Notes: generated from the letters alone by a model not told the origin. DNA of 40,719 nt from a virus (IMGVR_UViG_2734482569_000014); one strand, 5' to 3'; shown: positions 9,292-25,378, numbered from the stretch's first letter. Numbers and translations are program-made.

Positions 9292-9294
9292 GTG

Positions 9295-9471: not shown

Positions 9472-9489
9472 ATGCCCCCCATTAAAAAT

Positions 9490-9503: not shown

Positions 9504-9513
9504 GTTTGAATGT

Positions 9514-10653
9514 TTAACCAAGAATCAGACAACCATGTGCCGGCTTCACTGATGAAACACCCCATGCCAGTCCAACTTCATAGCGCACCTGGCGATACTG
9601 ACGATACAGTGCAATCTGGAACGTAATCCCTGAAATCGGGTCCGTAACATTCATTACATCATCAGCATTATCGCCACCTTCCGGCATTGCCGGAGTACGG
9701 GATGCCAGCAGAAACGCGTTGCGATCAAACGCCATATTTGCAGTAAAGGCCCCAACAACTGTGATGGCAGTATCATCGGCCAGATCCTGACGCAGTCCGG
9801 GCGCTGCAAGAGTAATCAGATTGCTGGTCGCTGCTGCCACAACATACTGATTCGGATCACCAGCGAACGTAACAATCTGACCTGCAGAAATACTCCCCGA
9901 ACCAGTATCAATGGAAATAAGAACATCGCCTTCTTTTTTCTCTCCATTCACGAGATAACCAGTTGCAGCAACCTTTGGCGCTCGTTTCACACCTGCCGAA
10001 CTGTGAATATTGAATCCCTCCAGACGCCCCAACACGCCCTCACGCAGTAGCTGTTCAGTGCCGGATTCATTCACTTTAAACAATACAGACTGTTTTCCGC
10101 GCAAATTAGCAATGGCAGTGGAGCCAAGCACCATCTGCAGATCGGTTGTCGGTGCGCCGTTATCCTCCAGAACCTGACGAGCCAGAGCAGCATCAGAAAG
10201 ATCATCTTTAACACCAAACGGCGTTGTCCCTGCGGTTCCCACGGCGCGGGAAGCACCGAAATACAACGCACCAAGATCAGCCTCAACCTCGTTTGCAAGG
10301 GCGCGAAAAGCCTGCTTGAACTGATCAGCCAGAATGGTGTTGTAAGTCCCTGAAGGGCCAAGAGCCAGTTGTTCTTCACCATTCCATTTAACCGGTGCCA
10401 TTTTGGATTTAGTAATTTTTACATCAACAGTGCCAATATTTTGATCACCGGTATTCGGAGCTGACGGCCCCGGTACGATATCTTCGGTTTTCGCCTCAGG
10501 CGCAACTGGCGCGGTTACCGTCTGATCTTTTGCTGCGGCGTCAGCTTTTGCGTTTTTTGCTACCGCAGGGATAAAACCTACCTGCTCACGGGATACAACA
10601 TCCAGGGCGGTATAAATAGTCGGGATCAACCCGGTCAGGGTATTTCCAGCCAT
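9514..10653 (-). CDS. Major capsid protein
   Basis: Large ORF after the scaffold gene; likely true start MAGNTLTGLIP at 10653 preceded by AAGGA SD (track ORF extends to 10746 via an upstream start). Confidence 0.8.
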   Translation of the reverse strand: MAGNTLTGLIPTIYTALDVVSREQVGFIPAVAKNAKADAAAKDQTVTAPVAPEAKTEDIVPGPSAPNTGDQNIGTVDVKITKSKMAPVKWNGEEQLALGPSGTYNTILADQFKQAFRALANEVEADLGALYFGASRAVGTAGTTPFGVKDDLSDAALARQVLEDNGAPTTDLQMVLGSTAIANLRGKQSVLFKVNESGTEQLLREGVLGRLEGFNIHSSAGVKRAPKVAATGYLVNGEKKEGDVLISIDTGSGSISAGQIVTFAGDPNQYVVAAATSNLITLAAPGLRQDLADDTAITVVGAFTANMAFDRNAFLLASRTPAMPEGGDNADDVMNVTDPISGITFQIALYRQYRQVRYEVGLAWGVSSVKPAHGCLILG

Positions 10654-10751
10654 AATTAAATATTCCTTAAAAATTTGCGTAATTGTGAATAGATGGAGTA
10701 ATGAGCTATCCAGCCCTGACACCAGCTCCCATCCGGAAGCTGACAAATGTG

Positions 10752-11516
10752 TTAATCAACGATTGTGATACCGTCTTTCAATGCGTTTTGCTTACCTGCA
10801 ACATCCAGTGCATCAAAAGCAGAGCGTTTCATCGTTTTCTGACCAATATCATGCTGTGTCGGACGGGAGCCGCCGCCATTGTTGCCACTGGCTTTCAGGA
10901 TGTAGTCTTTCTGAGGGTAATTTTCGACAAGGAACTCCAGCGCCTCATCAAACTGCGCCAGTTCGCCAGGCTTCGCGCGGGAATAAATTTTGTTGCCGGA
11001 AGCGTCATAAGCAACGATCCTCCCTTCTTCCACTTTGAATGCCTGCCCGAAGCGGGCTTGTAATAAATCTGCCGGGATCGCAATTTTATCGGCAATATAT
11101 TTTGAACCCGCAAAACTACCGCCAATCATAGAATCGTAAAGCTGCTTCTCCAGCATCTGAGAGCGTTGCTTTTCTTCATCTAATTGCTGCTGAAAATTTT
11201 TCGTAATTTCTGCCTTAACCTGGTCAACCTGTCCCGCATCGAGCAGCTTTTTCTGGTCGATTTTTGACAGCATTTCCAGTGCCTCGATCGCCTTCTTCGG
11301 GTCTTCGATAGCGGCAAACTTAGCCAGTTTTTCCTCTGCAGCTTCTTTAGCCAGGCGATGATTTTTTGCCTCGCCATTAAGCTCTGTAATTTTTTTTGTC
11401 GCCAGCGGTGCATCGAAGCCAATTTCTTTACCATCGTCGTGCACATAAACTGGCAGGCCAGCAGTATCAATTTCTGCGTATTGTTTTCCGTTAATCTCGA
11501 CCGTTTTCAGTTTCAT
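10752..11516 (-). CDS. Capsid scaffolding protein
   Basis: Acidic, alanine/lysine-rich helical protein between MuF-like and capsid genes; likely start MKLKTVEING at 11516 because the track start at 11588 would overlap a terminator hairpin. Confidence 0.6.
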   Translation of the reverse strand: MKLKTVEINGKQYAEIDTAGLPVYVHDDGKEIGFDAPLATKKITELNGEAKNHRLAKEAAEEKLAKFAAIEDPKKAIEALEMLSKIDQKKLLDAGQVDQVKAEITKNFQQQLDEEKQRSQMLEKQLYDSMIGGSFAGSKYIADKIAIPADLLQARFGQAFKVEEGRIVAYDASGNKIYSRAKPGELAQFDEALEFLVENYPQKDYILKASGNNGGGSRPTQHDIGQKTMKRSAFDALDVAGKQNALKDGITIVD

Positions 11517-11576
11517 ATTAGTACCTGGTTTAAGTCTTCCGACAGTTACGCTGCTCACCATCCGGATCGCAGCAAT

Positions 11577-11600
11577 AAAAAAGGCCACCCGAAGGTAGCC
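11577..11600 (-). terminator. Strand-specific intrinsic terminator between head-morphogenesis and scaffold genes
   Basis: Minus-strand RNA GGCUACC-UUCG-GGUGGCC followed by UUUUUU; the plus-strand version has a C-A mismatch and a poor U-tract. Confidence 0.55.
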
Positions 11601-11620
11601 TGTTGTAATAAATGATTTAT

Positions 11621-12736
11621 TTAAATCCCTGCTTTTCTGAATACCTGTGCATCACGCTCACGGAGCTGCTTCAGCGTCAGCCATTCGCCTTTATCGGTGT
11701 AAAATTCATCTGGCGACATACCACCATCCCGAATCAGCTTTGCTCGGCTTTCCCCCACAATCTGTTTTTGTCTGGTGTAAGGCTGACGCAAAAACCATTC
11801 CCTGTAGGTTGTATCTCCGGCCACCACGCCATCCATGCTGGCCCGCTCAGCCGGGGAAATATCGCGAACATCAATACCCAGTTCCTTCGCTGATTTCAGA
11901 ATGAACGTTTCCGTTGAGCGGCAGCAGAAATGAATTTTTCCCGGCCCCTGCAAATAAGGCACGCTGTGACCTACAGGTTTATTATTCAGCGTATATTTGA
12001 GGCGATCCCTGATTCGACATTGTGGCGTAGTACGATTATCAAGCGTTGATAACCATTGCTTACCCTTAATCAAATCATTATTCGCGCTGGCAAAACTCTC
12101 ACGGGCAGTAGCAGCAAGATGTCCAACCGCTGTTTTTGCAATGCTGGCCGCATTAGCCCGGCTCATCTGCAATGCACCATCCTGAAATCCCTTACTGACA
12201 TGTCCCCGAATTTTTCTTGCGATCTGCTCATTGGTATCCCCCAGCAAAAAACCCTGACGCACTGTATTTGTTATGCGTCTGAGCCGATCCGCCTCAAGAT
12301 CTGAGGCCCACTCACTGAGCAGTCGTCCCTGGAATGGTCGCGCCATTGCAGCGGCATAAAGTGCATCAGGAGAGATACCAACCAGAGGGTGAACATCAGC
12401 AACAAAATCAGGTAGCATAGAATCAAACAGACTTAACTGATAACCAGCCTCATAAATTGCCAGCTCGTTCAGCTCTCCGGAGAGACTGGTAAACATGCTG
12501 TTAATAGCAGTGCGGTTAACCTCTCTGACGCTCGCCAGAAGTGACTCCAGGCGCTTAACGGTAAAACTACCTGGATCGAGGCTGTCCAGTGCTATCAGCA
12601 GGCGAGCAGTAAGTTCCGCATCGCTGTCATTCAGTATTTTCACCATTCTGGCAGCCACGCCAGTGCTATAGCGGGATATCCAGACTGCATGAGCAATTGA
12701 TTCATCACGCAGCCGTTCATTCACGGTTTGCATCAT
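11621..12736 (-). CDS. Head morphogenesis protein (Mu F-like / SPP1 gp7 family)
   Basis: 371 aa; position after portal; contains TTPQCR...HFCCR-type motif typical of the family as I recall it. Confidence 0.65.
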   Translation of the reverse strand: MMQTVNERLRDESIAHAVWISRYSTGVAARMVKILNDSDAELTARLLIALDSLDPGSFTVKRLESLLASVREVNRTAINSMFTSLSGELNELAIYEAGYQLSLFDSMLPDFVADVHPLVGISPDALYAAAMARPFQGRLLSEWASDLEADRLRRITNTVRQGFLLGDTNEQIARKIRGHVSKGFQDGALQMSRANAASIAKTAVGHLAATARESFASANNDLIKGKQWLSTLDNRTTPQCRIRDRLKYTLNNKPVGHSVPYLQGPGKIHFCCRSTETFILKSAKELGIDVRDISPAERASMDGVVAGDTTYREWFLRQPYTRQKQIVGESRAKLIRDGGMSPDEFYTDKGEWLTLKQLRERDAQVFRKAGI

Positions 12737-14123
12737 TGATTTCCATCAGCATTACACTCTGATTTTTTAATTCATCGATCACTTCCTCTGGACGGGAATC
12801 CTGATCGATAAATTTCAACGCCTGCAACACCCGAACCGCATCAATCTGACGTATATCACCGCCCTGACGCAATGACTGAACAGCCAGCGCGGAGGATGAG
12901 TCAAACACCTGGGCAGATACATCCAGTTCAGTGCGCACATCCACATTGCCACCGCAACTCTCTCCGATCCATTCCGCCATTATCTGGAGAATATTATCGA
13001 GGGCATCTTCGAGGGAGTTCGCCATTGTATAAAGCGGCGAGTTTTCCTGCATTCGCTCTTCATTAGTCTGATCAACAGATTTGGTGGATGTATTTTCAGC
13101 ACGCAGAAGTTTAGCGCCGGCATGACGCATCTGATTTTCCAGCTTCTCAAGTGATGTTTCGCCAGATTCTATCGCTGCGCCACTATGTTCAACATATTCG
13201 AGGCCATTTTTTGTTCTGTCCTCAAAAATCGTAGCGGTGGATGCACCAACCGTCAGTTCTTCATTCCTGTCCAGCCCGTAGGCCACCAGCAATGGAACGC
13301 GGGCAACATGAAGAATATTGTCCTGCTCGCTCTGGCTTTGCCAGTGCTTGATATTCAGCAAGCCAAGATTAAGCAATGGCGGTGTACCACGCATAAATCC
13401 TGTTTTCTTCGTGTACAGTGTTACCAGAGGAATATCATCACGGCTGGTATTCCATGACTCATGAAGCGTCCAGACAGATTCGCCATTAGTGCCTTCGCTA
13501 CGTCGATAAATTTCAACTCGACGGGGCATAATATGGCGGATCTGCTCCACCTTCTTCTGCCCGAAATCATCACCATCAATAATGATGACCTCTTTTATAC
13601 GCAAATCAGTGAGAACAACTTTCCCTTTTTCAACTTTCGATTTCCATCCAATAACCTGGCGTGGATTCAGCATCGTAACGTACGGACGACCACCGGTCGC
13701 GTTTTCATCGGCTTTTGTCCGAATCTCTTTCATATCCGTTCGTGGATAGTCCACCAGCGCATGTGCCACACCATACTGAAATGCGAGGCTGAAAAATTGC
13801 TGCGCCCACACATCCAGTCGGCTCCCCTCCATGTCGATATTTTCTGCATATTCCCTGATTTTTGCCGGCGTTTCCTCACTCAATACTGTCGGCTCTGCAA
13901 ATATGCGCCCAATATTTTGCTTGATGCTTTCTTCATACACAGGAAGTAGCGTAGCCACAGACAGGCGTTTTTTATAAGCGTCTTCATCTTCGTTAGGCCA
14001 TTTTGGGAGATAATTTTCCCCCTGCCTGCGCATTTCAAGCGTACCGCCCATCAGTGCGTCGTTAATATCCCACGCCTCCAGCATATCGTTATAGTCGAGG
14101 TTGGGTGTTGATATATCAGCCAT
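12717..14123 (-). CDS. Portal protein
   Basis: 468 aa ORF directly downstream of terminase large subunit; size and synteny. Confidence 0.8.
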   Translation of the reverse strand: MADISTPNLDYNDMLEAWDINDALMGGTLEMRRQGENYLPKWPNEDEDAYKKRLSVATLLPVYEESIKQNIGRIFAEPTVLSEETPAKIREYAENIDMEGSRLDVWAQQFFSLAFQYGVAHALVDYPRTDMKEIRTKADENATGGRPYVTMLNPRQVIGWKSKVEKGKVVLTDLRIKEVIIIDGDDFGQKKVEQIRHIMPRRVEIYRRSEGTNGESVWTLHESWNTSRDDIPLVTLYTKKTGFMRGTPPLLNLGLLNIKHWQSQSEQDNILHVARVPLLVAYGLDRNEELTVGASTATIFEDRTKNGLEYVEHSGAAIESGETSLEKLENQMRHAGAKLLRAENTSTKSVDQTNEERMQENSPLYTMANSLEDALDNILQIMAEWIGESCGGNVDVRTELDVSAQVFDSSSALAVQSLRQGGDIRQIDAVRVLQALKFIDQDSRPEEVIDELKNQSVMLMEINDANRE

Positions 14124-14125
14124 AA

Positions 14126-15436
14126 TTAAATCCGAAGTGATGTGACTCTTCCGGTCGGTTTGACAATAGGGAATTGCTTAACGATGAAATAACCTCCGGC
14201 ATCATTCGGGTGATCATTGCCAGATTTTTTATCAGGCTCCCCCTTCTCATCCCAGACCTGTTGCTCCAGAGATTCGGCATATAACGGGCAACGCTTCACA
14301 TTAACTTTATAGCGACGCTCACCATTGGCATTGCAGAACATTGCATTCATTGAGTTAACGCGATCTTTTACTGGCGGGTTCGAGCTGTTCACCACAACGT
14401 TAAAACCAGCCTGCTTAAGCTGGGCTATATCCGTCGTACTTGCGTTACTTGATTTTCTGGAATCCCCGGAAGCATCTGGATAAATATAAATTTCCCTCAC
14501 TTTCCGGTAATCATTCCCATCATACAGCCAGAAGCGTTCTTTAATGATGCGGATCATATCCGGCGTATCGTAGGCATTGATGATTTCAGTTACCGCACAT
14601 GGAAGCCCCAAACGCAGCACATGGACGATTCCCGCCATCTTTCCAACGTTAAAATCCATCCCAATATAAATCGGCTCCCCTGGCTGCTCCACTTCTTCGC
14701 AATTATTCAGTTTCCGGTCAAACTGATGGTAAACAGTACCACTTGTCAGGTTAGTAAACTGTCCTCGAAGATAGGCTTTAATCAGCTCTGGAGGGTATGA
14801 TTCAAGAAGCGAAGGAATGTAATCTGCTGGCAGGTTCTTTTCATTATCGAAAGTAGATGCCTGCACCAGACCATACAGTGAGGCCAGCTCTGTTTTTTCA
14901 CGCACGGCTTTAACAAACTGCTCGTAGACAAATTTGAATCCTTCCGGCGTGGTTGTAACGTCAATACCGTTGCGAAGTCCATCAATCTTATAACGCATAC
15001 GTGCAATTATCTTGCGCCACGCCGTTCTGGCTTTTTCCTTCGGCAAAATGTCCAGTTCATCCACCAACGCATTACCAATTTTGAAACCGACGATCGTTTG
15101 TGGCTTCTCCATCGATCTGCAGATAGTGGTTCCCCGATACTGGCGTCCGTAATAAAAGTGAACCTCTTTATTTCCCTCATTAATTTTTACGTTCAATCCC
15201 CAGTCAGCAGCAACTTCTTCCACTGTAGGGTAAAAAATATCGCGAATTTGGGGATACGTTGGCGCAAAATATCCCTGATTTATACCTGGATGCTCCCAAA
15301 TCCCCTTGCATATGCCGCCACACCCAACCCATGTTTTGCCCGAGCCAAAACCAGCAATATAGGCTTTAAATTTATGGGGCATTGAAAGAAATCGCGCCTG
15401 AGGCACATTAAGCGTCGGAGAGATCATCTTCATCAC
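14126..15436 (-). CDS. Terminase large subunit
   Basis: Walker A-like AGFGSGKT near N-terminus; 436 aa; followed by portal. Confidence 0.9.
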   Translation of the reverse strand: MMKMISPTLNVPQARFLSMPHKFKAYIAGFGSGKTWVGCGGICKGIWEHPGINQGYFAPTYPQIRDIFYPTVEEVAADWGLNVKINEGNKEVHFYYGRQYRGTTICRSMEKPQTIVGFKIGNALVDELDILPKEKARTAWRKIIARMRYKIDGLRNGIDVTTTPEGFKFVYEQFVKAVREKTELASLYGLVQASTFDNEKNLPADYIPSLLESYPPELIKAYLRGQFTNLTSGTVYHQFDRKLNNCEEVEQPGEPIYIGMDFNVGKMAGIVHVLRLGLPCAVTEIINAYDTPDMIRIIKERFWLYDGNDYRKVREIYIYPDASGDSRKSSNASTTDIAQLKQAGFNVVVNSSNPPVKDRVNSMNAMFCNANGERRYKVNVKRCPLYAESLEQQVWDEKGEPDKKSGNDHPNDAGGYFIVKQFPIVKPTGRVTSLRI

Positions 15437-16502
15437 TCCTTACTCTGGCATCAACCACATTAATATTGATCGCCACAGGCTGGGGATGTTCATTATCTTC
15501 CACCGTTTCGATCTCTTTGCGCAGCTTCTGGTTTTCCATTCTGCGCCGTTCAATTTCCAGTTCCCGTAGCCGCTTATCTGCACATAAAGCCCCGCCAGCA
15601 GAAAACAAACGCAACAATTCACGCCGGGCGGCAGCCTTATCCTCCAGCAGGATCTCAACGCCGAATTTTCCGAATTTTGCCCCTGCATATAATTGCCGCG
15701 CATCCCCATCAAGCAGAGTGGTATCAGCCATATAAAGCTGTCCCGTTCCCTCACCGCAGCACTTCGGGCAGTCCGGATTGGGTATGGCGTTATCAACAAA
15801 GCCGAGGCCTCCATATTCCGGTTCGGGTTTGCCATCTCTGGAAGCCTGCGCCGCTGCCTTGTCGAATTCTGCTATATCGCGCCACTGGTAGAGATGATTC
15901 TCGCCCCAGCAATAACGGCAGTTAACACGGCGAAATTGTGCAAGCTGATTGGGGTCGGCCAGGACAATAGCCATCAACTGACTCACTAGTAAATCCAGGT
16001 CTGCGGTATAGCGTTTCTGGTACTGATTGCGGAAGTAGCTGATAGCGCGAAAAACCCTGGCATTTCTAAGCATACGACTGGCGTTGCTGTTAGCTGTCGC
16101 ACCTTGCCCCTCATAACCGGCTAGTCGGTACGCCTCTGTCGGCTTTTTACCCTGAGCAACAAGCATCGCAAACTTAGCCTGCTGGTCAGAAATGCCGAAT
16201 TCATCGGGACAGAACGAAAATTCCTCCGCGTCGCCCTCATTCAGGCCCGCATCGAATACTGGCTTTTTTTCCTGAGATTTTTCGTTCCGCTTTTGTGCAG
16301 TCTGCGCAGATTTTTTCTGCGCACTTTTTTGCGCAGTTTTGCACATTTCTGTCTGCGCATTTTTCGGAGTTTTTTTGATGTAACGACGGGCTGTTGCGTA
16401 ATTCAGTCCCCTTGCTTCACACCATGCCACCGGAGATATACCGGAGCGGGTGTATTCAGCAATATACTCCTGCTGCAACGCCCCCCAGTCCGGTCTGCTC
16501 AT
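15408..16502 (-). CDS. Terminase small subunit (Terminase_2-like core with N-terminal HTH and Cys-rich C-terminal region)
   Basis: Segment QQAKFAMLVAQGKKPTEAYRLAGY...ASRMLRNARV resembles the TerS family motif; lysine-rich AQK repeats; overlaps TerL start. Confidence 0.7.
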   Translation of the reverse strand: MSRPDWGALQQEYIAEYTRSGISPVAWCEARGLNYATARRYIKKTPKNAQTEMCKTAQKSAQKKSAQTAQKRNEKSQEKKPVFDAGLNEGDAEEFSFCPDEFGISDQQAKFAMLVAQGKKPTEAYRLAGYEGQGATANSNASRMLRNARVFRAISYFRNQYQKRYTADLDLLVSQLMAIVLADPNQLAQFRRVNCRYCWGENHLYQWRDIAEFDKAAAQASRDGKPEPEYGGLGFVDNAIPNPDCPKCCGEGTGQLYMADTTLLDGDARQLYAGAKFGKFGVEILLEDKAAARRELLRLFSAGGALCADKRLRELEIERRRMENQKLRKEIETVEDNEHPQPVAININVVDARVRSDEDDLSDA

Positions 16503-16505
16503 CAG

Positions 16506-16757
16506 TTAGTCCTGATTTTTATCCACCCTGAGTAGTTCGCGCAGAGCAAAGGCATCCCCTTTTCTGGCAAGCTTAAACAATGCCGCTCGTAACTCGGCTT
16601 CACCTTTCGCTCTGCCCTTACGGATGGCCGCATAAAAATCTGTCATTGCTTCCCGATTTTCTTTCAGTCGGTTCAGATCAACATCCAGAACGTCAGCGAT
16701 TTGTTGTGCAGTCATCCGGCACGCTGCCAGAGACTCGACTTTCGAATACGGAATCAT
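16506..16757 (-). CDS. Small HTH-type DNA-binding protein, function unknown
   Basis: 83 aa; segment MTAQQIADVLDVDLNRLKENR looks like a helix-turn-helix; immediately upstream of TerS. Confidence 0.35.
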   Translation of the reverse strand: MIPYSKVESLAACRMTAQQIADVLDVDLNRLKENREAMTDFYAAIRKGRAKGEAELRAALFKLARKGDAFALRELLRVDKNQD

Positions 16758-17643
16758 TTGTCACCCCCATTGATATGCAGGGTGTCTTCTTCCTGTATTT
16801 TTCGTGAAGGATTTTTACTGCAGCGTTGTTCCAGGTGACCTGATGGTGAATGCGTTTATGACTGGCACCCATAAGTGAGATTTTTACGCACGACGGCGCA
16901 TACATGACGGAGTAAAAACTTTTAACGTAGGTTCCGGAATCCAGATACAGCTCGGTCATTCCGCCGCTGTTTTTCTGCGTCTGTTTCTGCCCTAACTGGA
17001 CAGCACCGATCGTCATAAACAATTCACCACAGCGACCGAGATTCGTGTACGTATTCACATCCTCGTTAATGCGCCCCATGAATGAGAACGGTCGATCAAC
17101 CGAACAGATAAAGCTGTTCATTGCCTTGCGTTTCACCCACGAAGCATGGCCGCCATTGTCACCAAGAAAATCCCCGCCCTGCGACATAGCGATGGAAAGA
17201 GCAGGTATTGATTCGTAGTACGCAAGCATTTCAGAAAGGATCTCATCCAGTTTCCTTATCGGGAAATAGGCCTGGTCATAGTTGCGATCCACCCGAAACT
17301 GGAACTCGTGATAATCATCATCGAGCTGAATGAAGTATTTACACCCGACCAGTTTTGCCTGGTCGAAACAGGCATTACGGGCGTAAAAAATTGAGCGGCG
17401 GTCACTAAAATTATCGGCTTCGTCAAAACGACTAGCAATATCGGCTTTGGAAAATACCAGCACCTGTTCACCAAATTCAGCCATGTACTGATGCCGTGTC
17501 TTATCTTCATCATCAACAACGATAAAAATTTTCCCGGTATAGCCAGCACGACGCAACGTCCGGTAAGTCAGAACTTTGTCCGGTCGCCCGTGAGTCAGAA
17601 TAAAGGCGCAAAAATCATCACGCATATTCCTCCTCCCCGCCAT
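16693..17643 (-). CDS. YdaY-like protein; putative GT-A-fold (DxD-motif) transferase
   Basis: 316 aa; motifs KIFIVVDDEDK and ARNACFDQAKLVGCKYFIQLDDD resemble family-2 glycosyltransferase signatures by eye; no TM segment; corresponds by position to the Rac ydaY locus. Confidence 0.35.
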   Translation of the reverse strand: MAGRRNMRDDFCAFILTHGRPDKVLTYRTLRRAGYTGKIFIVVDDEDKTRHQYMAEFGEQVLVFSKADIASRFDEADNFSDRRSIFYARNACFDQAKLVGCKYFIQLDDDYHEFQFRVDRNYDQAYFPIRKLDEILSEMLAYYESIPALSIAMSQGGDFLGDNGGHASWVKRKAMNSFICSVDRPFSFMGRINEDVNTYTNLGRCGELFMTIGAVQLGQKQTQKNSGGMTELYLDSGTYVKSFYSVMYAPSCVKISLMGASHKRIHHQVTWNNAAVKILHEKYRKKTPCISMGVTNDSVFESRVSGSVPDDCTTNR

Positions 17644-18406
17644 GCATGATCTCCACCATGCGCTGCGTCATTCGGACAAATCCATTTTCAATAGCCTGCT
17701 GATAATCAATGATCACCAGCGCCGACTCCTCGAAAAGGCACTGAATTTCAGCGGGGGCATGAGCGTAATAGTCCGCAATTCTGCTGAAATTAAACACCGT
17801 GTGACGTTCTGCTGCACACAGGAGGAATTTCTCAATATCAGGATCAAGGGACGCCGAACGTATCCGGCTGATCAGCTCCTGAGTTTTCGTATCGTCGTAC
17901 AGTTCACTGATATCCGGTTTACCGCCTGACGGCTCATAAACAGGCGTATCAATTTTCGTCGTATACGGCTCCTCCTCATTTCCTGTACCGGGCAAAACAT
18001 CCGTCAACAGTTCATCAATTTCTGCCGGGATGAAGCCTGTCAGGGAGACATCAAAATCAGCATTGATTAGGTCCGACAGCTCCATCCGCAACAGATCTTC
18101 ATCCCAGCCAGCATTCATCGGCAGGCGATTATCTGCCAGGCGGTACGCCTTTTTCTGCTCATCCGTCAGGCCAGACAGAACAATGACCGGAACAGAATCC
18201 ATTTTGAGCATTTCAGCCGCCATAACACGACCGTGACCCGCAATAATTTCGCCCTTTTCGTCAATCAGCACCGGATTAGTCCAGCCGAATTGCTTAATAC
18301 TTTCTACCAGTTGTGCCACCTGCTCAGTACTGTGCGTCCTGGCGTTGTGCGCATACGGTGACAATTCTTGTAATGGGCGATAGACTATCTTTAATTTCTC
18401 GCTCAT
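17618..18406 (-). CDS. ParB-like nuclease-domain protein (YnaK-like)
   Basis: N-terminus VYRPLQELSPYAHNARTHS...NPVLIDEKGEIIAGHGRVMAA resembles the ParB/Srx N-terminal domain; sits between trkG and terminase genes as ynaK does in Rac. Confidence 0.65.
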   Translation of the reverse strand: MSEKLKIVYRPLQELSPYAHNARTHSTEQVAQLVESIKQFGWTNPVLIDEKGEIIAGHGRVMAAEMLKMDSVPVIVLSGLTDEQKKAYRLADNRLPMNAGWDEDLLRMELSDLINADFDVSLTGFIPAEIDELLTDVLPGTGNEEEPYTTKIDTPVYEPSGGKPDISELYDDTKTQELISRIRSASLDPDIEKFLLCAAERHTVFNFSRIADYYAHAPAEIQCLFEESALVIIDYQQAIENGFVRMTQRMVEIMHGGEEEYA

Positions 18407-18543
18407 ACAGCCTTGCTTTATGAATAAAACGCACCCCAGCAGCCAGTGCTACTGGGGGCGGAGGTGTTGCTGGTAAAGTTAGGTATTGGATCAATGAGTG
18501 AGTCAACATAATATTAAACTCACAATTATAAATCAGCCATATA

Positions 18544-20019
18544 TTAGGAGCGCCAAAAAAAACCTGAAAACAATATAATAACAGGATAAATTTCAAGGCG
18601 ACCAAGAATCATAGCTATGCACATTAAATATTTTGCAATGTCATTAAGCACTCCGAATGACGATGCAGTAGCCCCAAAACCTAATCCCATATTATTAATA
18701 CATGCAGCCACTGTTGCAAATGATGTAAGAAAATCATATCCCATACCATTTAACACCAGTATAAAAAACACCGTGAAGAGAGTATAAAGAAAAAAGAAAC
18801 TCCATACAGACCTCATTACACGATCTGTAACTATCTTCCCTCCTACATTTACACTCAACAACGCTCTGGGATGAGAAAGCTGATTTATCTCGTGTTTGCT
18901 TTGTTTGAAAAGTATAAGAAATCGAAGTGACTTAATTCCACCACAGGTTGAACCTATACATCCCCCAAAGAAACTTGACAACAGCAAAAACACTATCGTG
19001 TGCGTGGGCCAGTTTGCATAATCCTGCGTAGCTAAACCATTATCAGTGAGCATGGAGCTGGCAAGAAAAAACGAATGAATAAAACTTCCATGCAAGTCAT
19101 ACATACCTATATGCCAGACCTGGAAAGAGGTAACAATGATCACCCCTAAGGCTATTAACAGAAAGAAACGAAGTTCAATATCTCTGATTAAAGGTTTTAT
19201 CGTTTTTCTGCTAATAACAATATACCAAAGAGTGAAGTTGAAAGCCGATAGCAGGGAAAAAGAACCAGCCACCAGCTCAACCAAATAGTTATTAAAATAT
19301 CCGATACTCTCGCTATGAGTTGAGAAACCACCAAGCGAAACTGTGGAAATCCCGTGACAAATAGCATCAAACAAAGGCATTCCTGCAAGTCTATAACAGA
19401 CAATACAAGCAATACCTAATAAAGAATAAGTTATCCACAGTGTCCGTGACGTATCGGCCAGGCGGGGAGTGAGTTTGTCATCCTTAAATGGCCCCGGCAT
19501 TTCTGACTGATAAAGCTTTGCACCACCAATACCCAATAATGGCAATACTGCAACCGCCAGAACAATAACTCCTAAACCACCTATAAAATTTAACTGTGAC
19601 CGATAGTACAAATATGCCCGAGGTAATGAACTAACATCATCAATTACAGTTGCTCCTGTTGTTGTTATTCCAGAAACCCCTTCAAACAGAGCATCAATGA
19701 ACGTTAAATTAAGTTCTGAGTCAATCCATAAAGGGAATGCACTAATAACAGAAAACAAAATCCAAAACATTACAATTATAATAAACCCATCACGGGTACG
19801 TAATTGAATGCCAGATTTCTTAGTTGTATACCACGCTCCGCCACCAATGCAAAAAAATATAACGAAAGTTATAAAGAAAACGAACAGGCTTTTTTCTTTA
19901 TAAAACAATGCTACAACCATTGGTGGCAACATTGAAAGACTATAGAGCCAAACCAGGAACCCACACATATGAGTAACAACTCTTACATGAGATGTATTCA
20001 TATCTAAATATTCTTTCAA
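18544..20019 (-). CDS. trkG: TrkG/TrkH-family potassium uptake membrane protein
   Basis: 491 aa polytopic membrane protein directly after Rz/Rz1, the position trkG occupies in Rac; AT-rich upstream region. Confidence 0.8.
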   Translation of the reverse strand: MKEYLDMNTSHVRVVTHMCGFLVWLYSLSMLPPMVVALFYKEKSLFVFFITFVIFFCIGGGAWYTTKKSGIQLRTRDGFIIIVMFWILFSVISAFPLWIDSELNLTFIDALFEGVSGITTTGATVIDDVSSLPRAYLYYRSQLNFIGGLGVIVLAVAVLPLLGIGGAKLYQSEMPGPFKDDKLTPRLADTSRTLWITYSLLGIACIVCYRLAGMPLFDAICHGISTVSLGGFSTHSESIGYFNNYLVELVAGSFSLLSAFNFTLWYIVISRKTIKPLIRDIELRFFLLIALGVIIVTSFQVWHIGMYDLHGSFIHSFFLASSMLTDNGLATQDYANWPTHTIVFLLLSSFFGGCIGSTCGGIKSLRFLILFKQSKHEINQLSHPRALLSVNVGGKIVTDRVMRSVWSFFFLYTLFTVFFILVLNGMGYDFLTSFATVAACINNMGLGFGATASSFGVLNDIAKYLMCIAMILGRLEIYPVIILFSGFFWRS

Positions 20020-20138: not shown

Positions 20139-20615
20139 TTACTTTAAACACTGCTCGGTTATGTATTGCTGAGCACCTTCAAGTTGGGCCTGCATCATTA
20201 CCAGTCGTTCCCGGAGGGTGAAATAATCCCGTTCAGCGGTGTCTGCCAGTCGGGGGGAGGCTGCATTATCCACGCCGGAGGCGGTGGTGGCTTCACGCAC
20301 TGACTGACAGACTGCTTTGATGTGCAACCGACGACGACCAGCGGCAACATCATCACGCAGAGCATCATTTTCAGCTTTCGCATCAGCTAACTCCTTCGTG
20401 TATTTTGCATCGAGCGCAGCAACATCACGCTGACGCATCTGCATGTCAGTAATTGCCGCGTTCGCCAGCTTCAGTTCTCTGGCATTTTTGTCGCGCTGGG
20501 CTTTGTAGGTAATGGCGTTATCACGGTAATGATTAACAGCCCATGACAGGCAGACGATGATGCAGATAACCAGAGCGGAGATAATCGCGGTGACTCTGCT
20601 CATTGCTGCCCCCAC
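20139..20615 (-). CDS. Rz i-spanin
   Basis: 158 aa with N-terminal TM and coiled-coil; embedded Rz1 ORF in another frame; follows endolysin. Confidence 0.8.
20198..20383 (-). CDS. Rz1 o-spanin lipoprotein (embedded in Rz)
   Basis: 61 aa; lipobox VVGC, proline-rich PPPPPAW segment; entirely within the Rz gene in a different frame. Confidence 0.75.
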
Positions 20616-21097
20616 AAACAGACTTCACGCTCAATCTCACGACGGGTCATCAGCCCTTTCCATTGCTTACCGCCAGCATATGTCCAGCGACGTAGCTGAT
20701 CACATGCGCCTTTGATATCGCCCTGGTTTATTTTGCGAAGAAGCGTCGATGTTCTGAAATTGCCAGCACCCACGTTGTAAACGAATGAGTAAAGAGCGCC
20801 GCGCGTTGTTTCCGGTATATCGACTTTGATGTACGGGTTAATTTGTCTGGCGACAGTGGCAAGGTCTTTATTCAAGAGTGTTTTGCATTCTGCTTTGGTA
20901 TACGTTTTACCGAGCATGATGTCTTTTCCTGTATGCCCGTGACATACAGTCCATACACCAACAATATCTTTGTATGGTATGTAGCTGACACCTTCCAGAC
21001 CATCGTTACCACTTGGGCCAGTGATTAACACTGATGCTATAGCAATTGCTCCGCCACCAATAGCAGCAGCAACGACTTTTCGTAATGATGGAGGCAT
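20600..21097 (-). CDS. SAR endolysin (T4-lysozyme-like, phage 21 R-type)
   Basis: 165 aa; N-terminal weakly hydrophobic Gly/Ala-rich signal-anchor-release segment [16 protein letters not shown] followed by lysozyme-like domain. Confidence 0.85.
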
Positions 21098-21312
21098 TAT
21101 TCACCTCTCGCAGCCTTGCGCTTATCTTCTTTAATCTTGAAATAAAGGTTTGTCAGGTACGTCAGCAGGCCAAATACCAGACTACCCAGCACACCGATTG
21201 CAGCCCACTGTGACGGAGTTACTCTATCGAGCAACTGTAAAAACCAGTAGCCAGCACTGCCTGCGGAGGTGCCGTAGGCAATGCCTGTTGAAATTTTGTC
21301 CATGGATTTCAT
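21097..21312 (-). CDS. Pinholin (phage 21 S-type) with dual-start motif
   Basis: Likely start [14 protein letters not shown]... (two Met codons three codons apart) preceded by GGAGGTGAGG SD; 71 aa; track ORF extends upstream to 21369. Confidence 0.8.
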
Positions 21313-21416
21313 AGCCTCACCTCCGCACGGAACGGATGGCATAGTTATTATGTGTAGGCTTTCAGACACATCAATCAGAGCCTTAATTGATATATATGCT
21401 GGAGACGATGCAATAT

Positions 21417-21442
21417 AAAAAGCTCGCCGTAGCGAGCTAATA
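21417..21442 (-). terminator. Intrinsic terminator candidate between lipoprotein gene and holin
   Basis: Minus-strand RNA AGCUCGC-UACG-GCGAGCU followed by UUUUAUAUU; perfect 7-bp inverted repeat. Confidence 0.45.
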
Positions 21443-21563
21443 AAATGTATTTCTCTGATATTATGTTTATTTGTATTAGCTCAGACTTGACATCACAGGT
21501 TTCGTATATAGAACATCATCAAATCTGTCAGTTTGCTATGAATGAGATATAGTAATTGAAGAG

Positions 21564-21959
21564 CTAACCTCGCATGTCAAAGCCAGATTTCTGAAAATCT
21601 CTGTAGACTTCCGGATTGTTGAAGGCCGGAAATTTGGCTTTATGAGCTGCGGACTTTATCGCTTCGCAATAGGCTTTATCACCGTTACTGGTAGATATTT
21701 TTAACGCCGTGCCATCCTGAGAGAATTCCATATGCAACCTGCATTTTTTCCCTTTCCAGTTATGCGGCTCATCAAGTTTGGCATTAATTGCAGCTCTGAT
21801 TCCCCGCGCTTGCGCCCCCCATTCATCCTGATCATCCCAGCGTCCTGAACTGCAACTACCTGTAGCAGTAGTTTTGTGGCAATCTGAAGGGTGTAAAGGT
21901 GTGCATCCCGCAACAAAACCGACCCAAAAAGTCAACATAACGATTTTCTTTAATCCCAC
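21564..21959 (-). CDS. Lipoprotein with divergent TolA domain-III-like C-terminal module
   Basis: GTG start with GAGGAG SD; signal peptide plus lipobox FVAGC; C-terminal region shares the two-Cys pattern (GKKCRLHMEF...GDKAYCEAIK...PEVYRDF) with the paralogue at 22110..22538. Confidence 0.55.
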   Translation of the reverse strand: MGLKKIVMLTFWVGFVAGCTPLHPSDCHKTTATGSCSSGRWDDQDEWGAQARGIRAAINAKLDEPHNWKGKKCRLHMEFSQDGTALKISTSNGDKAYCEAIKSAAHKAKFPAFNNPEVYRDFQKSGFDMRG

Positions 21960-22109
21960 TTCTTGCTCCTCAATCCATTAAAATCTCAGCAATAGTAGTT
22001 GTTACGTCCGCCACTGGCTCAGAGCTGACTATCCGCTAAATTTAGCTCAGTGCCGTAGCTGTGTCAGAACAAACCTAAGCCGAAACCGTTTATTACAAAA
22101 CAATAAATA

Positions 22110-22538
22110 TCAGGGTTTAAAATCCAGCACCCCATTTTGAAATACTTTATATACTTCCGGCGAAGGGGGGGCAGGTATATCAGCATTCTTTATCGCATTC
22201 ATCGCTTCACGACATAAATCGAGGTCTCCACTTTCTCTTTTAACCTCCAGTAGAAGGCCATTCGGGGCCATATGCATTCTCAGTGTACACTCTTTTCCTG
22301 AATACTTACTCGCATCCCCGAACTGTTTTTCGATGGCGCTCTTGATTTGATGGGCATACAGACGGATATCCTCACTAACATCAGAAGTACGTTCAGATGA
22401 ACTCACATACTGTGTCTCTATTGCTTTATCGGAGTAATATGATGTACGGTCATGATAATTTGTCGATACAGCATCAGTGCACCCGATAATAATCCCACTA
22501 ATAATCAACGTAAGAATTGATGCGCTACGAAAACCCAT
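22110..22538 (-). CDS. Lipoprotein with TolA C-terminal domain (domain III)-like module
   Basis: Signal peptide plus lipobox IIGC; C-terminus YAHQIKSAIEKQFGDASKYSGKECTLRMHMAPNGLLLEVKRESGDLDLCREAMNAIKNADIPAPPSPEVYKVFQNGVLDFKP is near-collinear with the E. coli TolA C-terminal domain as I recall it. Confidence 0.7.
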   Translation of the reverse strand: MGFRSASILTLIISGIIIGCTDAVSTNYHDRTSYYSDKAIETQYVSSSERTSDVSEDIRLYAHQIKSAIEKQFGDASKYSGKECTLRMHMAPNGLLLEVKRESGDLDLCREAMNAIKNADIPAPPSPEVYKVFQNGVLDFKP

Positions 22539-22567
22539 TTTTCCTCACATATGTCATATAGTAAAGG

Positions 22568-22597
22568 ATTATATATACCGTTGTTTTGGACGCTCAA
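22568..22597 (-). promoter_or_regulatory. Candidate sigma70 promoter for the upstream lipoprotein gene
   Basis: Minus strand: -35 TTGAGC, 18-nt spacer, -10 TATAAT, about 30 nt upstream of the AGGAA SD and ATG at 22538. Confidence 0.35.
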
Positions 22598-23135
22598 ACA
22601 GCGAATCAGATCAAATAAAACGCACATTTGTTAACATTTACACAAAGTCTGCGTGGGATATTCTGAAAGAATATCCATAATGTGGAGAGAATCTATTGAA
22701 GTGCATGGTGCCGGGTGCCTCCCGGTGAACAAAATGTTCGTGATACCTGTCGGCGACAGAAAAGGTTAATGGTATCACCCCACCGCACAGGGGGATTCAC
22801 CATGCAGGAGTTTTCTTAGCAAACTCACTGCGCGCCCGGCAACTCCCAACCACATAAAATGCGGAGTTTGTGGCATTTATGCATATAACTCGCAGGAATT
22901 ATCTTAAAAAACTGATGTCGATCCGGATTAAAAAGAAGCAGGTCATCATCAGATGACTGGAAAAAAGGAAAACAAAAAATACTCATCATACAGTTTTGAT
23001 TGCAGGGATGAGCCTGCTATGCACAATATGCAGAATATAAGCAAGATAAAAATATGCAGGCATATTATTTCGGATCTTGTTATTAACACAACCTTTTTAA
23101 TAATCATTTGGCATACAATAAACCAGCCCAAAAAG

Positions 23136-23155
23136 AACCGCCTAAACAGGCGGTT
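23136..23155 (-). terminator. Hairpin with downstream U-run (terminator or pause structure in late leader)
   Basis: Inverted repeat AACCGCC/GGCGGTT with 6-nt loop; on the minus strand it is followed by CUUUUUGGG. Confidence 0.35.
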
Positions 23156-23182
23156 GGTCAATACAAAGGATGCTTCGTCTTT

Positions 23183-23212
23183 ATTATAGTAATCTGAGGC
23201 GTCGGGTGTCTT
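23183..23212 (-). promoter_or_regulatory. Candidate late (PR'-like) promoter
   Basis: Minus strand: -35 AAGACA, 18-nt spacer, perfect -10 TATAAT; hairpin 23136..23155 lies about 20 to 40 nt downstream of the predicted start. Confidence 0.3.
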
Positions 23213-23472
23213 GTATCAGACAACATATTGTCCCGCTAAACAGCGAATTACAAACCACCCTGCAATGATCTCTCATCTCATTTTATATGAGTTGACGACA
23301 TCAGGATAACGCATCATCAGCCCCTGCCAAGAAATATCAAAACTCCCGCCAGCAATGTGTTATCACAATATTGTAAAAAAAACACAGCACCGAAACTATA
23401 ACTGGTCTCTGTTATAATTTGGAGCAGAAAGACCAGTTGCCCAACTAGCAGCATTCTCCCCTGCTTTCCTGA

Positions 23473-23505
23473 CGTAAAAAAACCGCATTAAGCGGTTTTT
23501 TTACG
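23473..23505. terminator. Bidirectional intrinsic terminator downstream of the Q-like gene
   Basis: Perfect 14-bp inverted repeat CGTAAAAAAACCGC / GCGGTTTTTTTACG with 5-nt loop; A7/U7 tracts flank a GC core on both strands. Confidence 0.5.
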
Positions 23506-23582
23506 ATGTCCATGTCTGCAATCCGCCTCGCGATACAGCTTTGCGAAGCATAGCAAAATTGAAGCAGTTTATACGTAAGAAA

Positions 23583-24125
23583 TCAAGCCATTTTCTCAGC
23601 AAATGATTCACGCATGGGAATATATAGGGCATACTCAGCAACAGCTAACCAATTAGCAATCCGTTTTTCGCATGTGCTAAAACACCACTCTGGGTGTGCA
23701 TCATTTAGCAATTCAGCCATTTTGCGCTTAGTCATCCCCCGCCCTTCATAGCGTTGCCGGAGAATGCAAATCAATCCTGGATGCTCTGCCAGCACCTCAC
23801 TTATGACTCGATCAATACATAACGCCTCTGCATCAGTACAATGCGCCAGCCAGCTCTTTTGCTTGCCGTTGATCATCTCTCGCAAAAACGCTTCCAGCTC
23901 AGCTTTCTCTATTCCCGCTTTTTTCATTCTGCGCAGGGCTTCATTAATGGCTGTTTTCGTCAGTTTTTTGGATGCCAACAACTGATTGAACATATTCCCT
24001 GACCTGCCACCGCCAATATACGACCAGCGCCCCCACATACGTAGTTTTCCCTGAATCCAGACACTTTCCAGCGTGGTGAGGCGAAGGTGTTCTCCGCTTT
24101 TTCCTGTATTCGTTGGGTAAATCAT
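23583..24125 (-). CDS. Putative late antiterminator Q-like protein
   Basis: 180 aa ORF that is the last gene before the terminator and late-control gap upstream of the lysis cassette; assignment by position, family not verified. Confidence 0.4.
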   Translation of the reverse strand: MIYPTNTGKSGEHLRLTTLESVWIQGKLRMWGRWSYIGGGRSGNMFNQLLASKKLTKTAINEALRRMKKAGIEKAELEAFLREMINGKQKSWLAHCTDAEALCIDRVISEVLAEHPGLICILRQRYEGRGMTKRKMAELLNDAHPEWCFSTCEKRIANWLAVAEYALYIPMRESFAEKMA

Positions 24126-24412
24126 AAATGACCTTTCTTTCTCCAGATTTCTTGTGTGCGAAAAACCCCTTCAGCATGCATCAGGCGCAATTCTTCTTTG
24201 GTGTAATCGCTGGTTTTTACCCGCCCGTCGATTAGATCGTGGCATGAGCTACAGGCTATCGCCGCCTGCATATCATGTGGTTTTGTCGCTGTTCCGCACG
24301 TCCCCGCCAGCCTGTAATGCGCCAGCACAGAGGTTTCGGGATTGTGATTGCAGTAGCCAGGGATTCTGATCTGGCACATCTGGCCTTTAGCCGCTTTACG
24401 TAAATTCACCAT
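24122..24412 (-). CDS. YbcO-like (DUF1364) Cys-rich nin-region protein
   Basis: 96 aa with CQIRIPGYCNH...CSSCHDL cysteine pattern; same size as the DLP12 ybcO product as I recall. Confidence 0.5.
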   Translation of the reverse strand: MVNLRKAAKGQMCQIRIPGYCNHNPETSVLAHYRLAGTCGTATKPHDMQAAIACSSCHDLIDGRVKTSDYTKEELRLMHAEGVFRTQEIWRKKGHL

Positions 24413-25011
24413 TACGCAAACTCCAGTAGTTGTGCGGCCACATTTTCAACTTCCTCCTGAGAGGAGAATTTACGGAACAGAATCCAGTTCCACAGCACAT
24501 TCAGTACAGATTTATAAACCTGCTGAAACTCGACTTCGTCCATATTCGCAAAAGCGATGGATTTTGCCCGACGCCCACGGCTACCGTCCGGATAAATATG
24601 CTCGGTGTAAAATCCGGCCTGAATGGTTACCCACTCGCGGAAAGCCTCAAACGACTTTAGCAACGCCGTATCCCGGGTTCTACGAGTCGCAACGGTGTTA
24701 AGGTATTGCTCTGCGGCATCACTCAGGGCTGGCGTGTGTTCCCGACCAACTGATTCGCACAGGTAATCAACGAAACCAGACAGCAGTTCTCGTTCGCGAG
24801 GCGTGATCGCCCCACCGACCGGAGTCCAGTAATCGAATCCCAGTTGCAGGAGTTTGAAAAAACGCTTGTGGAATGCGTAGTTACGCACACGCTTAAAGTC
24901 TGCGTGTATCCACTCACCTATTTTGATTTGATGCAGAAAATCGCAACTCTCCGGCGTCGCCGGGAGAAGTAAACCAGAAGAGGTTTGTTTGACCAGTTGT
25001 ATATGCGCCAT
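24412..25011 (-). CDS. Nin-region hypothetical protein (DUF1367-like)
   Basis: 199 aa ORF upstream of the YbcO-like gene in the same operon; family guess from memory only. Confidence 0.4.
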   Translation of the reverse strand: MAHIQLVKQTSSGLLLPATPESCDFLHQIKIGEWIHADFKRVRNYAFHKRFFKLLQLGFDYWTPVGGAITPRERELLSGFVDYLCESVGREHTPALSDAAEQYLNTVATRRTRDTALLKSFEAFREWVTIQAGFYTEHIYPDGSRGRRAKSIAFANMDEVEFQQVYKSVLNVLWNWILFRKFSSQEEVENVAAQLLEFA

Positions 25012-25291
25012 TTCTCAATCTCTCGATGGCGCAGCGCAGCAGATGCCAGTTGTTCAGGCTGACGAATAAAGTATAAATAAACTGGCTATGGTGTAAAGCC
25101 CCACATAGCATGAACAAACACTACATATCAAATAGCTGGTACAAGGATAGAAATACGACACTTATTATTAAAAACGATTAGATAAATTACATTTTAATGT
25201 TATGCAAAAGTTCTTTTTTATCATAACATTTCAATAAAAGCATTACAGATGCAATCATCCCGTCATCATCAATTATTTAAGGTGGTTAAAC

Positions 25292-25378
25292 ATGGAAAAT
25301 AACAAGTTCGCACATCTCGCTCCTTTTTTATCCGTAATCCTTTTCGCTTGTTGTTTTATATGGGCATTATTTTTATAA
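25292..25378 (+). CDS. Small hydrophobic peptide (28 aa), candidate membrane peptide
   Basis: AAGGTGG SD 6 nt before ATG; hand translation MENNKFAHLAPFLSVILFACCFIWALFL; lies in AT-rich intergenic DNA; below track cutoff. Confidence 0.3.
   Translation: MENNKFAHLAPFLSVILFACCFIWALFL

Follow-up and report, generated by a model that had tools for sequence, protein, structure and literature searches.

What is modified by a glycosyltransferase that a phage encodes beside a ParB-like protein, close to its packaging genes? This question is raised by two minus-strand genes, ynaK and the transferase gene that follows it, in the viral sequence IMGVR_UViG_2734482569_000014. The whole analysed stretch, called the window here, is 40,719 nucleotides (nt) long and represents an intact Rac-like prophage of Escherichia coli, with an integrase, recE/recT-type genes and a replication module. 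A preliminary description, made from the sequence alone, had proposed a ParB-like protein of 262 amino acids (aa) and a putative transferase of 316 aa, and both open reading frames (ORFs) are present on the minus strand where it placed them. Our analysis points to a conserved two-gene cassette, which we read, at somewhat less than even chances, as a late and accessory DNA-glycosylation cassette.

The transferase gene contains the following features (NDP, nucleoside diphosphate; GT-A, glycosyltransferase fold type A).

16693..17625, minus strand: TAGT-family GT-A glycosyltransferase, 310 aa from Met7 (Pfam PF20691, PHROG 842, GT-A fold); the ORF is open from 17643.
17503..17514, minus strand: DDED, residues 44-47, nucleotide-binding acidic motif typical of GT-A, after the second beta-strand (model strand 38-44).
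17314..17322, minus strand: DDD, residues 108-110, DxD metal/NDP-sugar motif, after beta-strand 103-108.
16843..16848, minus strand: invariant HH, residues 266-267, in a family-specific C-terminal extension beyond the Pfam TAGT domain.
17618..17636, minus strand: translational-coupling junction, with the Shine-Dalgarno sequence GGAGGAGG at 17636-17629, the ATG at 17625-17623 and the ynaK stop codon TGA at 17620-17618.

The protein matches the Pfam family TAGT (PF20691, TET-associated glycosyltransferase, a name that refers to its genomic linkage with TET/JBP (5mYOX) dioxygenases) over profile positions 4-205 of 205 (E-value (E) 4.1e-34; 118.8 bits, cutoff 27.5) and PHROG 842, labelled beta-glucosyl-HMC-alpha-glucosyltransferase (E 8e-104; HMC, hydroxymethylcytosine), and the Prokaryotic Genome Annotation Pipeline (PGAP) names it 'GREB1-related protein'. 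Besides TAGT, no Pfam family was matched at E <= 0.1. NCBIfam profiles gave no meaningful match, a sequence-profile search of the PDB gave a chance match only, and the lack of a PADLOC match places the protein outside the listed defence systems. The AlphaFold model, built from an alignment of 52 sequences, is a compact soluble alpha/beta fold with a mean predicted local distance difference test score (pLDDT) of 89.3 and a predicted template modelling score of 0.84. At E <= 1e-3 Foldseek found 132 PDB matches. Those at the top are without exception GT-A glycosyltransferases, about 10% identical in sequence, and include ColGalT1, ppGalNAc-T2, ThuS, SpsA, TarS and GnT-I. AvpGT, which together with ThuS represents nucleoside- and peptide-modifying GT-A enzymes, is also among the fold matches, and glycogenin appears at low rank. 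The best fold matches among viral proteins (BFVD) are TAGT-domain proteins, with template modelling (TM) scores up to 0.77-0.86. Hence, the transferase is confidently predicted, from profile and model, to be a DxD-type GT-A glycosyltransferase of the TAGT family. The preliminary description had called a GT-A-like fold by eye, which agrees with this check, and had seen signatures of family-2 glycosyltransferases, which hold at the level of the fold (SpsA, TarS) but not of the Glycos_transf_2 profile, which is unmatched. A nucleotidyltransferase fold was rejected, because the DxD motif and the top matches favour a glycosyltransferase and ADP-glucose pyrophosphorylase is found only at rank 38.

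The acidic motifs pointed out earlier, FIVVDDEDK (residues 40-48 in the numbering of the 316-aa ORF) and YFIQLDDD (103-110), preceded by ARNACFDQAKL (88-98), are all present and correspond to the DD(E)D and DxD of GT-A enzymes. D47 does not vary among 52 homologues, and each of D108, D109 and D110 is conserved in at least 90% of them; in an alignment of 34 sequences D108 is invariant. The catalytic motifs are kept in homologues from both bacterial and archaeal viruses, and the transferase is a basic protein, with a median isoelectric point (pI) of 8.6. The last part of the E. coli protein, a tail of about 28 aa (residues 289-316, pLDDT < 60), is lineage-specific, lacks a counterpart in most homologues and overlaps the start of the next ORF (83 aa) at 16693-16757.

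The true start of the transferase is almost certainly Met7, judging from the sequence around it. The start of the 316-aa ORF was rejected on the placement of GGAGGAGG and on the starts of the homologues and of the PGAP call, which are at Met7; thus the ORF of the preliminary description exists, but its product should have 310 aa. At ATGCGTGA the transferase start overlaps the ynaK stop, with an 8-nt overlap of the two genes. Because GGAGGAGG precedes the ATG and the ATG overlaps the ynaK stop in this way, ynaK and the transferase are translationally coupled, and in homologous loci, too, the two genes usually overlap slightly.

The partner gene has a more composite structure, as follows.

17618..18406, minus strand: full-length ynaK, 262 aa, ParB-like partner (Pfam ParB_N, PHROG 620).
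17999..18406, minus strand: ParB/Srx nucleotide-binding-type N-domain, residues 1-136 (AlphaFold pLDDT about 75-93; Foldseek matches).
17930..17965, minus strand: conserved linker YTTKIDTPVYEP (YTxKIxxPxYEP), residues 148-159 (alignments).
17657..17914, minus strand: helical, transferase-specific C-terminal domain, residues 165-250 (no Pfam family).

The ParB/Srx-type N-domain noticed in the preliminary description is borne out by the Pfam profile ParB_N (PF02195; E 8.7e-7; 29.3 bits, just over the cutoff of 26.3) and by Foldseek matches of the ynaK model to Noc, ParB-CDP, KorB, PadC and sulfiredoxin structures (E down to 7e-7). The whole protein matches PHROG 620 (E 1.7e-90). Its GxxR motif is AGHGR at residues 56-60, and the arginine persists in 93 of the 109 homologues compared and is gone from 15. 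The closest sequence relatives of the N-domain are fusions of ParB with DNA methyltransferases in phages (phrog_498, E 6e-51; PADLOC MTase_II, 1.5e-38), and many of the 431 phage records matching it are annotated as methylase. A plasmid-type partition role was rejected, since ynaK scores 38.1 with the partition-ParB model TIGR00180, under its cutoff of 58.45, and its structure model contains no helix-turn-helix (HTH) domain; no ParA gene was annotated or found in the window.

The helical C-terminal domain belongs to no Pfam family. A scan of it to E 10 gave no Pfam match below E 0.03 (best E 0.04), and among PHROGs only the parent PHROG 620 was matched. In the linker, Y148, P155 and Y157 are invariant among 20 diverse sequences, and the segment is predicted to be disordered (pLDDT < 50) despite this conservation, which suggests a docking or acceptor peptide. 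The protein is strongly acidic (pI 4.5), and a pI of about 4.5 is found for the partner across all lineages. In strain EC2 (NZ_CP058571), PGAP calls the intact 262-aa ynaK an incomplete pseudogene of 258 nt (L002:20750-21007); this is likely an annotation artefact, with the truncated K-12 protein as the reference.

How strict the association of the two genes is can be judged from their distribution. The transferase was found by tblastn in 36 records of isolated phages. In the annotated phages that we inspected, namely Lactobacillus gasseri phi jlb1, L. delbrueckii c5, Nocardia NTR1, a Porphyromonas phage and the haloarchaeal virus HHTV-2, transferases with 27-47% identity to the E. coli protein start at or inside the end of a ParB-like gene and are followed by terminase genes. 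In phage c5 the pair forms the first two genes after cos. Hidden Markov models (HMMs) were then built for the transferase and for two segments of the partner, its ParB N-domain (residues 1-136) and its C-terminal part (residues 145-250), and applied to 132 non-redundant viral loci and to 80 genomic loci, one genome per species. Viral loci comprised 109 with an adjacent partner carrying both parts, 11 in which the adjacent partner runs off the contig, 7 with an adjacent partner lacking a detectable ParB N-domain, 3 with a non-adjacent partner (one of them an artefact of ORF calling) and 2 with the transferase at a contig end. The corresponding genomic loci numbered 61, 3, 9, 3 and 3, and one further locus was partnerless. 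Counting informative loci only, partner and transferase are thus neighbours in 127 of 130 viral and 73 of 77 genomic cases. A reciprocal search starting from the C-terminal domain found a transferase within 150 nt in 77 of 79 loci and within 1 kb in the other two.

Prophages and phages that carry the pair come from more than 15 phyla, and a haloarchaeal virus has it as well. The hosts belong to Pseudomonadota, Bacillota, Bacteroidota, Actinomycetota, Verrucomicrobiota, Planctomycetota, Spirochaetes, Chlorobi, candidate-phyla-radiation lineages and archaea. Within E. coli, a 2.3-kb query (the pair with its flanks) is 100% identical in strain EC2, and at least 80% of it was found in 867 of 5,426 complete genomes. 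The pairing, earlier regarded as unusual, is therefore common in E. coli and spread over many phyla.

The two parts of the partner behave differently. The ParB domain is absent from 16 uncut partners, and in most of these loci, as well as in Vibrio jumbo phages, the partner is reduced to about 130-155 aa that comprise the linker and the helical domain only. Compared pairwise over the 109 complete pairs, transferases share a mean identity of 0.53, C-domains 0.50 and ParB domains 0.35, and divergence tracks that of the transferase with a Spearman coefficient of 0.56 for the C-domain versus 0.22 for the ParB domain. These comparisons indicate that the real, obligate and co-evolving partner of the transferase is the linker with the C-terminal domain of ynaK, and that the ParB domain is optional to the cassette. 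Two partners of about 272 aa (L144:7178-7996 and L219:758-1582) keep the C-domain and have an N-terminal half that matches neither the ParB N-domain HMM nor Pfam; in them another domain may have replaced ParB.

The position of the cassette in the phage genomes is informative as well. In the window it is followed by three packaging genes.

16506..16757, minus strand: small protein of 83 aa (phrog_309, labelled terminase small subunit, E 8e-23; the PGAP call has 69 aa).
15408..16502, minus strand: terminase small subunit TerS (Pfam Terminase_2, PHROG 51).
14126..15436, minus strand: terminase large subunit TerL (Pfam Terminase_6N and Terminase_6C).

The minus-strand late region runs from a Q-like antiterminator through lysis genes, trkG, ynaK, the transferase, the 83-aa gene, TerS, TerL and portal to head and tail genes. 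Hence the preliminary description was right to place the pair near the terminase genes, but not immediately upstream of them, because the 83-aa ORF lies directly downstream of the transferase, before TerS and TerL. In strain ETEC4085 the start of the TerS gene is the same (96% identity over a 434-nt match) and a terminase large subunit is annotated, but the ParB-transferase pair is absent. Since ETEC4085 keeps the same TerS and the 83-aa gene without the cassette, the cassette is accessory and dispensable, and the 83-aa protein is part of the packaging module rather than of the cassette. A homologue of the 83-aa gene also lies downstream of the cassette in locus L094. The order of ParB, transferase and terminase holds in the E. 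coli, Lactobacillus, Nocardia and Porphyromonas phages and in HHTV-2; in Vibrio jumbo phages the pair is located among replication genes. Genes 5' of the cassette are heterogeneous, with lysis, replication or recombination functions, and the genes on its 3' side are terminases from at least five Pfam families, followed by portals. With so many terminase families downstream, no single packaging protein can be the conserved acceptor.

Comparison with the Rac prophage of E. coli K-12 (locus L001) shows what has been lost there. K-12 Rac lacks window positions 6596-18152, an 11.6-kb deletion that fuses the ydaY region to codon 85 or so of ynaK. The first 85 or so ynaK codons are left, YnaK of K-12 is an N-terminal stump of 87 aa, and the transferase, terminase and head genes are gone. 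A second clean deletion in K-12 corresponds to 20584-29705 and runs from the lysis genes through a DUF1627 gene. Thus the window does carry the intact version of a module lost from K-12, as had been suggested. The suggestion that the corresponding K-12 loci are truncated or pseudogenised holds for ynaK, which is truncated; the transferase is wholly deleted. As for ydaY, it lies between the tail-tube and tape-measure genes (about 6244-6603 in the window), so that it is not the transferase locus, and we rejected it as a transferase remnant.

What, then, may the pair do? In the mechanism that we favour, the linker and C-terminal domain of the partner would dock onto the transferase and activate it, and the ParB/Srx N-domain would gate or tether the complex on replicated phage DNA, in the way of the ParB-like activators of thymine dioxygenases. 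The transferase would move a sugar from an NDP-sugar to phage DNA shortly before packaging, and the glycosylated genome, once packaged, might be shielded from nucleases in the next host. DNA is favoured as the target because of the precedent in the family, the methyltransferase type of the ParB domain, the analogy with dioxygenase activation, and the packaging or replication genes nearby. We also counted in its favour that the transferase is basic, that the junction is translationally coupled and that the cassette is dispensable. As terminases and other neighbours differ between loci, two kinds of acceptor are left: one that is present everywhere, ordinary DNA for instance, and the co-evolving partner itself. 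A narrower form, in which the pair glycosylates unmodified DNA at a canonical base (for example at an exocyclic amine) or at the backbone, with no hydroxymethyl precursor, is rather unlikely in our judgement.

The cassette repeatedly picks up enzymes that make or decorate sugars. An NDP-sugar epimerase/dehydratase directly follows the transferase in three loci (L094, L095 and L097), and Pfam matches of downstream neighbours include epimerase/dehydratase in two cluster representatives and cytidylyltransferase in one. Some transferases are fused to a sulfotransferase, to S-adenosylmethionine (SAM) methyltransferases of small-molecule type, to a P-loop domain or to another TAGT domain. In the fusions P0149, P0182 and P0192 the P-loop domain is N-terminal, and all that it matched, weakly, was a PHROG with the label terminase small subunit. 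DNA methyltransferases sometimes adjoin the cassette, and in locus L120 a fusion of ParB with an N6/N4-methyltransferase lies directly 5' of the pair. In one metagenomic phage (L099; 71-1042 and 1879-3270) the gene just before the ParB-like gene encodes a radical-SAM enzyme, and the transferase has an N-terminal P-loop (GxxxxGKS); both may be extra steps of the same pathway.

Several known systems resemble this one in part. PF20691 includes the enzyme of phages T2 and T6 that adds a second glucose to glucosyl-hydroxymethylcytosine in DNA (PMC13216743, PMC13390438). This beta-glucosyl-HMC-alpha-glucosyltransferase shares the Pfam family and the GT-A fold with the window transferase, and a homologue from a T4-like phage is among the BFVD matches. 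However, the two are distant (about 14% identity, TM about 0.6), and the T2/T6 enzyme works without a ParB-like partner and adds its glucose to hydroxymethylcytosine that already bears an alpha-linked glucose. For this it needs a deoxycytidine monophosphate (dCMP) hydroxymethylase and an alpha-glucosyltransferase (alpha-GT), and the annotations of the Rac-like prophage and of phage c5 contain neither. The label of PHROG 842 follows from the membership of the T2/T6 enzyme in PF20691, and on Rac-like, Lactobacillus and halovirus genes it is an over-transferred annotation.

Glycosyltransferases linked to TET/5mYOX enzymes (Burke 2021, PMC8256090; Pyle 2023/2024, bioRxiv 10.1101/2023.12.21.572611) are likewise phage GT-A enzymes that act on DNA after replication, and they often lie near ParB-like genes, terminases, epimerases and second transferases, as here. 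In partnership with 5mYOX or ThyS, phage transferases glycosylate 5-hydroxymethylcytosine (5hmC) (bioRxiv 10.1101/2023.12.21.572611), and the linked enzymes depend on a neighbouring methyltransferase with 5mYOX, or on ThyS, for 5hmC or 5-hydroxymethyluracil (5hmU); none of these was found here or in the sampled related loci. In the same survey 65% of transferase contigs had neither 5mYOX nor ThyS and were set aside by its authors (bioRxiv 10.1101/2023.12.21.572611).

For the partner, the closest parallel is given by ParB-like proteins that consist of an N- and a C-domain without a DNA-binding domain and that activate cognate phage thymine dioxygenases specifically on double-stranded DNA (PMC13229309). 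The architecture of ynaK is the same, and it too stands beside a specific enzyme, but its client is a glycosyltransferase instead of a 5mYOX dioxygenase. Mutants of such a ParB-like protein in the nucleotide-binding residues were still functional (O'Toole et al. 2026, PMC13229309); the 15 ynaK homologues without the GxxR arginine offer a parallel. The same study linked transferases chiefly to the clade of dioxygenases that are independent of ParB (PMC13229309). The C-domain of ynaK is transferase-specific, can work without the ParB domain and is probably distinct from the C-domains of the dioxygenase proteins. ParB folds of phages are often fused to DNA methyltransferases, and such fusions are enriched in prophages (Kaljevic et al. 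2025, PMC12704722). There the enzyme is fused, whereas ynaK carries a docking domain and its enzyme is the separate, translationally coupled transferase.

The kinetoplastid base-J glucosyltransferase (JGT) and animal GREB1 were reportedly put in the same glycosyltransferase clade by Iyer et al. (in NAR in 2013). JGT requires 5hmU made by JBP1/2, and it is likened to the window transferase by this clade assignment only. GREB1, a large eukaryotic protein, is likened to it by its domain and by the PGAP name.

Several observations weigh against DNA as the target. We know of no GT-A enzyme that glycosylates a canonical base. The partner is strongly acidic (pI about 4.5) and, in the model, has no DNA-binding domain. 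The ParB N-domain is absent in about 8% of loci and the GxxR arginine is lost in some of the homologues that keep this domain, so nucleotide-dependent gating cannot be essential. Moreover, neither a TET/JBP enzyme nor an annotated hydroxymethylase was found in the PGAP-annotated EC2 prophage, whose cassette is identical, among the unassigned ORFs of the window or in the complete 31.8-kb genome of phage c5. Both were also missing from the Pfam-called flanks of L090 (10 kb per side) and of L094 and L099 (1.9-10 kb), and from the best 25 of the 51 Pfam families matched by 78 representatives of upstream neighbours, where weak matches are possible. Because no enzyme forming hydroxymethyl-pyrimidines is encoded, the acceptor should not be the usual 5hmC or 5hmU, and the kind of acceptor used by characterised viral DNA glycosyltransferases is unavailable in the sampled genomes. 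In addition, GREB1, with the same domain, acts on a protein, the oestrogen receptor, which it O-GlcNAcylates (PMC7968844). Finally, we found no published test of a TET-less ParB-TAGT pair in the searched literature, and the searched papers on HHTV-2 or on ParB with glycosyltransferases contain nothing on the ynaK-transferase pair. Nothing relevant on ynaK itself came to light in that literature either. The preliminary description was thus correct that the system is experimentally uncharacterised, although the family itself is named by Pfam and PGAP. Within the searched literature, the obligate partner domain, which is undescribed, the optional ParB domain and the consistent lack of a precursor-making enzyme appear to be new.

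The lack of a known acceptor, the acidic partner without a DNA-binding domain and the GREB1 precedent leave protein glycosylation as a strong rival, which we consider possible but on the unlikely side. The target could, most economically, be the partner itself, at the invariant linker tyrosines, or a host or phage protein presented by the partner. Glycogenin, seen at low rank among the fold matches, glycosylates itself. The linker and C-domain are the only gene product universally conserved with the transferase, Y148 and Y157 lie invariant among the 20 sequences within a segment that is predicted to be disordered, and a DNA acceptor pathway was not found encoded. However, a divergent Porphyromonas homologue has Phe for Y148 and Ile for Y157, where an essential acceptor would be expected to persist; the characterised viral members of PF20691 act on DNA; and the methyltransferase-associated subtype of the N-domain and the terminase or replication neighbours would be left without explanation.

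Small-molecule chemistry, in which a metabolite or an immune signalling nucleotide is glycosylated or a host NDP-sugar is hydrolysed, altering the cell surface or blunting host defence at a late stage of infection, seems improbable to us. The GT-A fold does also support NDP-sugar hydrolysis and small-molecule acceptors (compare AvpGT and ThuS), no macromolecular acceptor pathway is encoded, and a related phage has an anti-CBASS gene of the Acb1 family 3' of its terminase genes, showing that counter-defence genes occur in this region. Nevertheless, a strictly co-evolving partner with a ParB/Srx domain is unexpected for a metabolite enzyme, and the fusions to sulfotransferases and methyltransferases point to a built glycan instead of hydrolysis. 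Public labels such as 'ParB-like nuclease' and 'chromosome (plasmid) partitioning protein', and the location directly 5' of terminase genes in most loci, would fit a nuclease or site-recognition helper of terminase, or a partition protein, with an incidental or inactive transferase fold. This we hold to be very improbable. An essential terminase helper was rejected because the ETEC4085 relative has the same TerS start and a terminase large subunit without the pair, and the downstream terminases come from at least five families. Partition is contradicted by the lack of ParA in the window and of HTH in the model, by the TIGR00180 score below cutoff, and by phage c5, which has the pair yet no annotated integrase or partition gene. 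An inactive transferase does not agree with catalytic motifs conserved across bacterial and archaeal viruses. DNA glycosylation thus stays our favoured, though tentative, reading, and a part of the probability goes to none of these four.

Transcription of the cassette in the window may be subject to one more element.

18434..18457, minus strand: terminator-like hairpin between the trkG insert and ynaK, with a 10-bp stem, 7 G-C pairs and a T-rich tail.

As the hairpin precedes ynaK, late transcripts can extend into the cassette and the terminase genes only by reading through it. The inserted gene trkG (18544-20019, minus strand), which encodes a TrkH-family potassium transporter, separates the lysis genes from ynaK; its stretch is low in GC (0.39-0.43) and has this terminator-like hairpin as its own at the 3' side (18457-18434). 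Another low-GC stretch (0.37-0.40) at 26784-28892 (minus strand) holds a pair of ORFs of 333 and 363 aa with weak matches to GNAT and HEPN/RES N-terminal domains and no PADLOC match. It may be a toxin-antitoxin or defence insert, and its 333-aa gene has a frameshift in strain EC2. Just 5' of the lysis cassette are two small ORFs (21564-22538, minus strand), whose counterparts in EC2 are called TolA C-terminal domain by PGAP and which have no match in PADLOC.

To our knowledge, phage DNA glycosylation is known only on bases bearing a hydroxyl or hydroxymethyl group, or on sugars already attached to them. Nevertheless, a large share of TAGT-type transferases is found in phages that make no such handle and were set aside in earlier surveys, and the window offers a tractable E. 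coli example of a TAGT transferase without a precursor-making enzyme. If the target is DNA, the cassette would produce a new phage DNA mark, with bearing on restriction evasion and on the sequencing-based detection of modifications. If unmodified DNA is glycosylated, this would be a new DNA-modification chemistry, carried by a 2.3-kb cassette region in about one-sixth of complete E. coli genomes. If the target is a protein, the pair would represent a widespread phage protein-glycosylation system and a prokaryotic counterpart of GREB1. Either target would correct the over-transferred labels 'beta-glucosyl-HMC-alpha-glucosyltransferase' and 'partitioning protein' in phage records.

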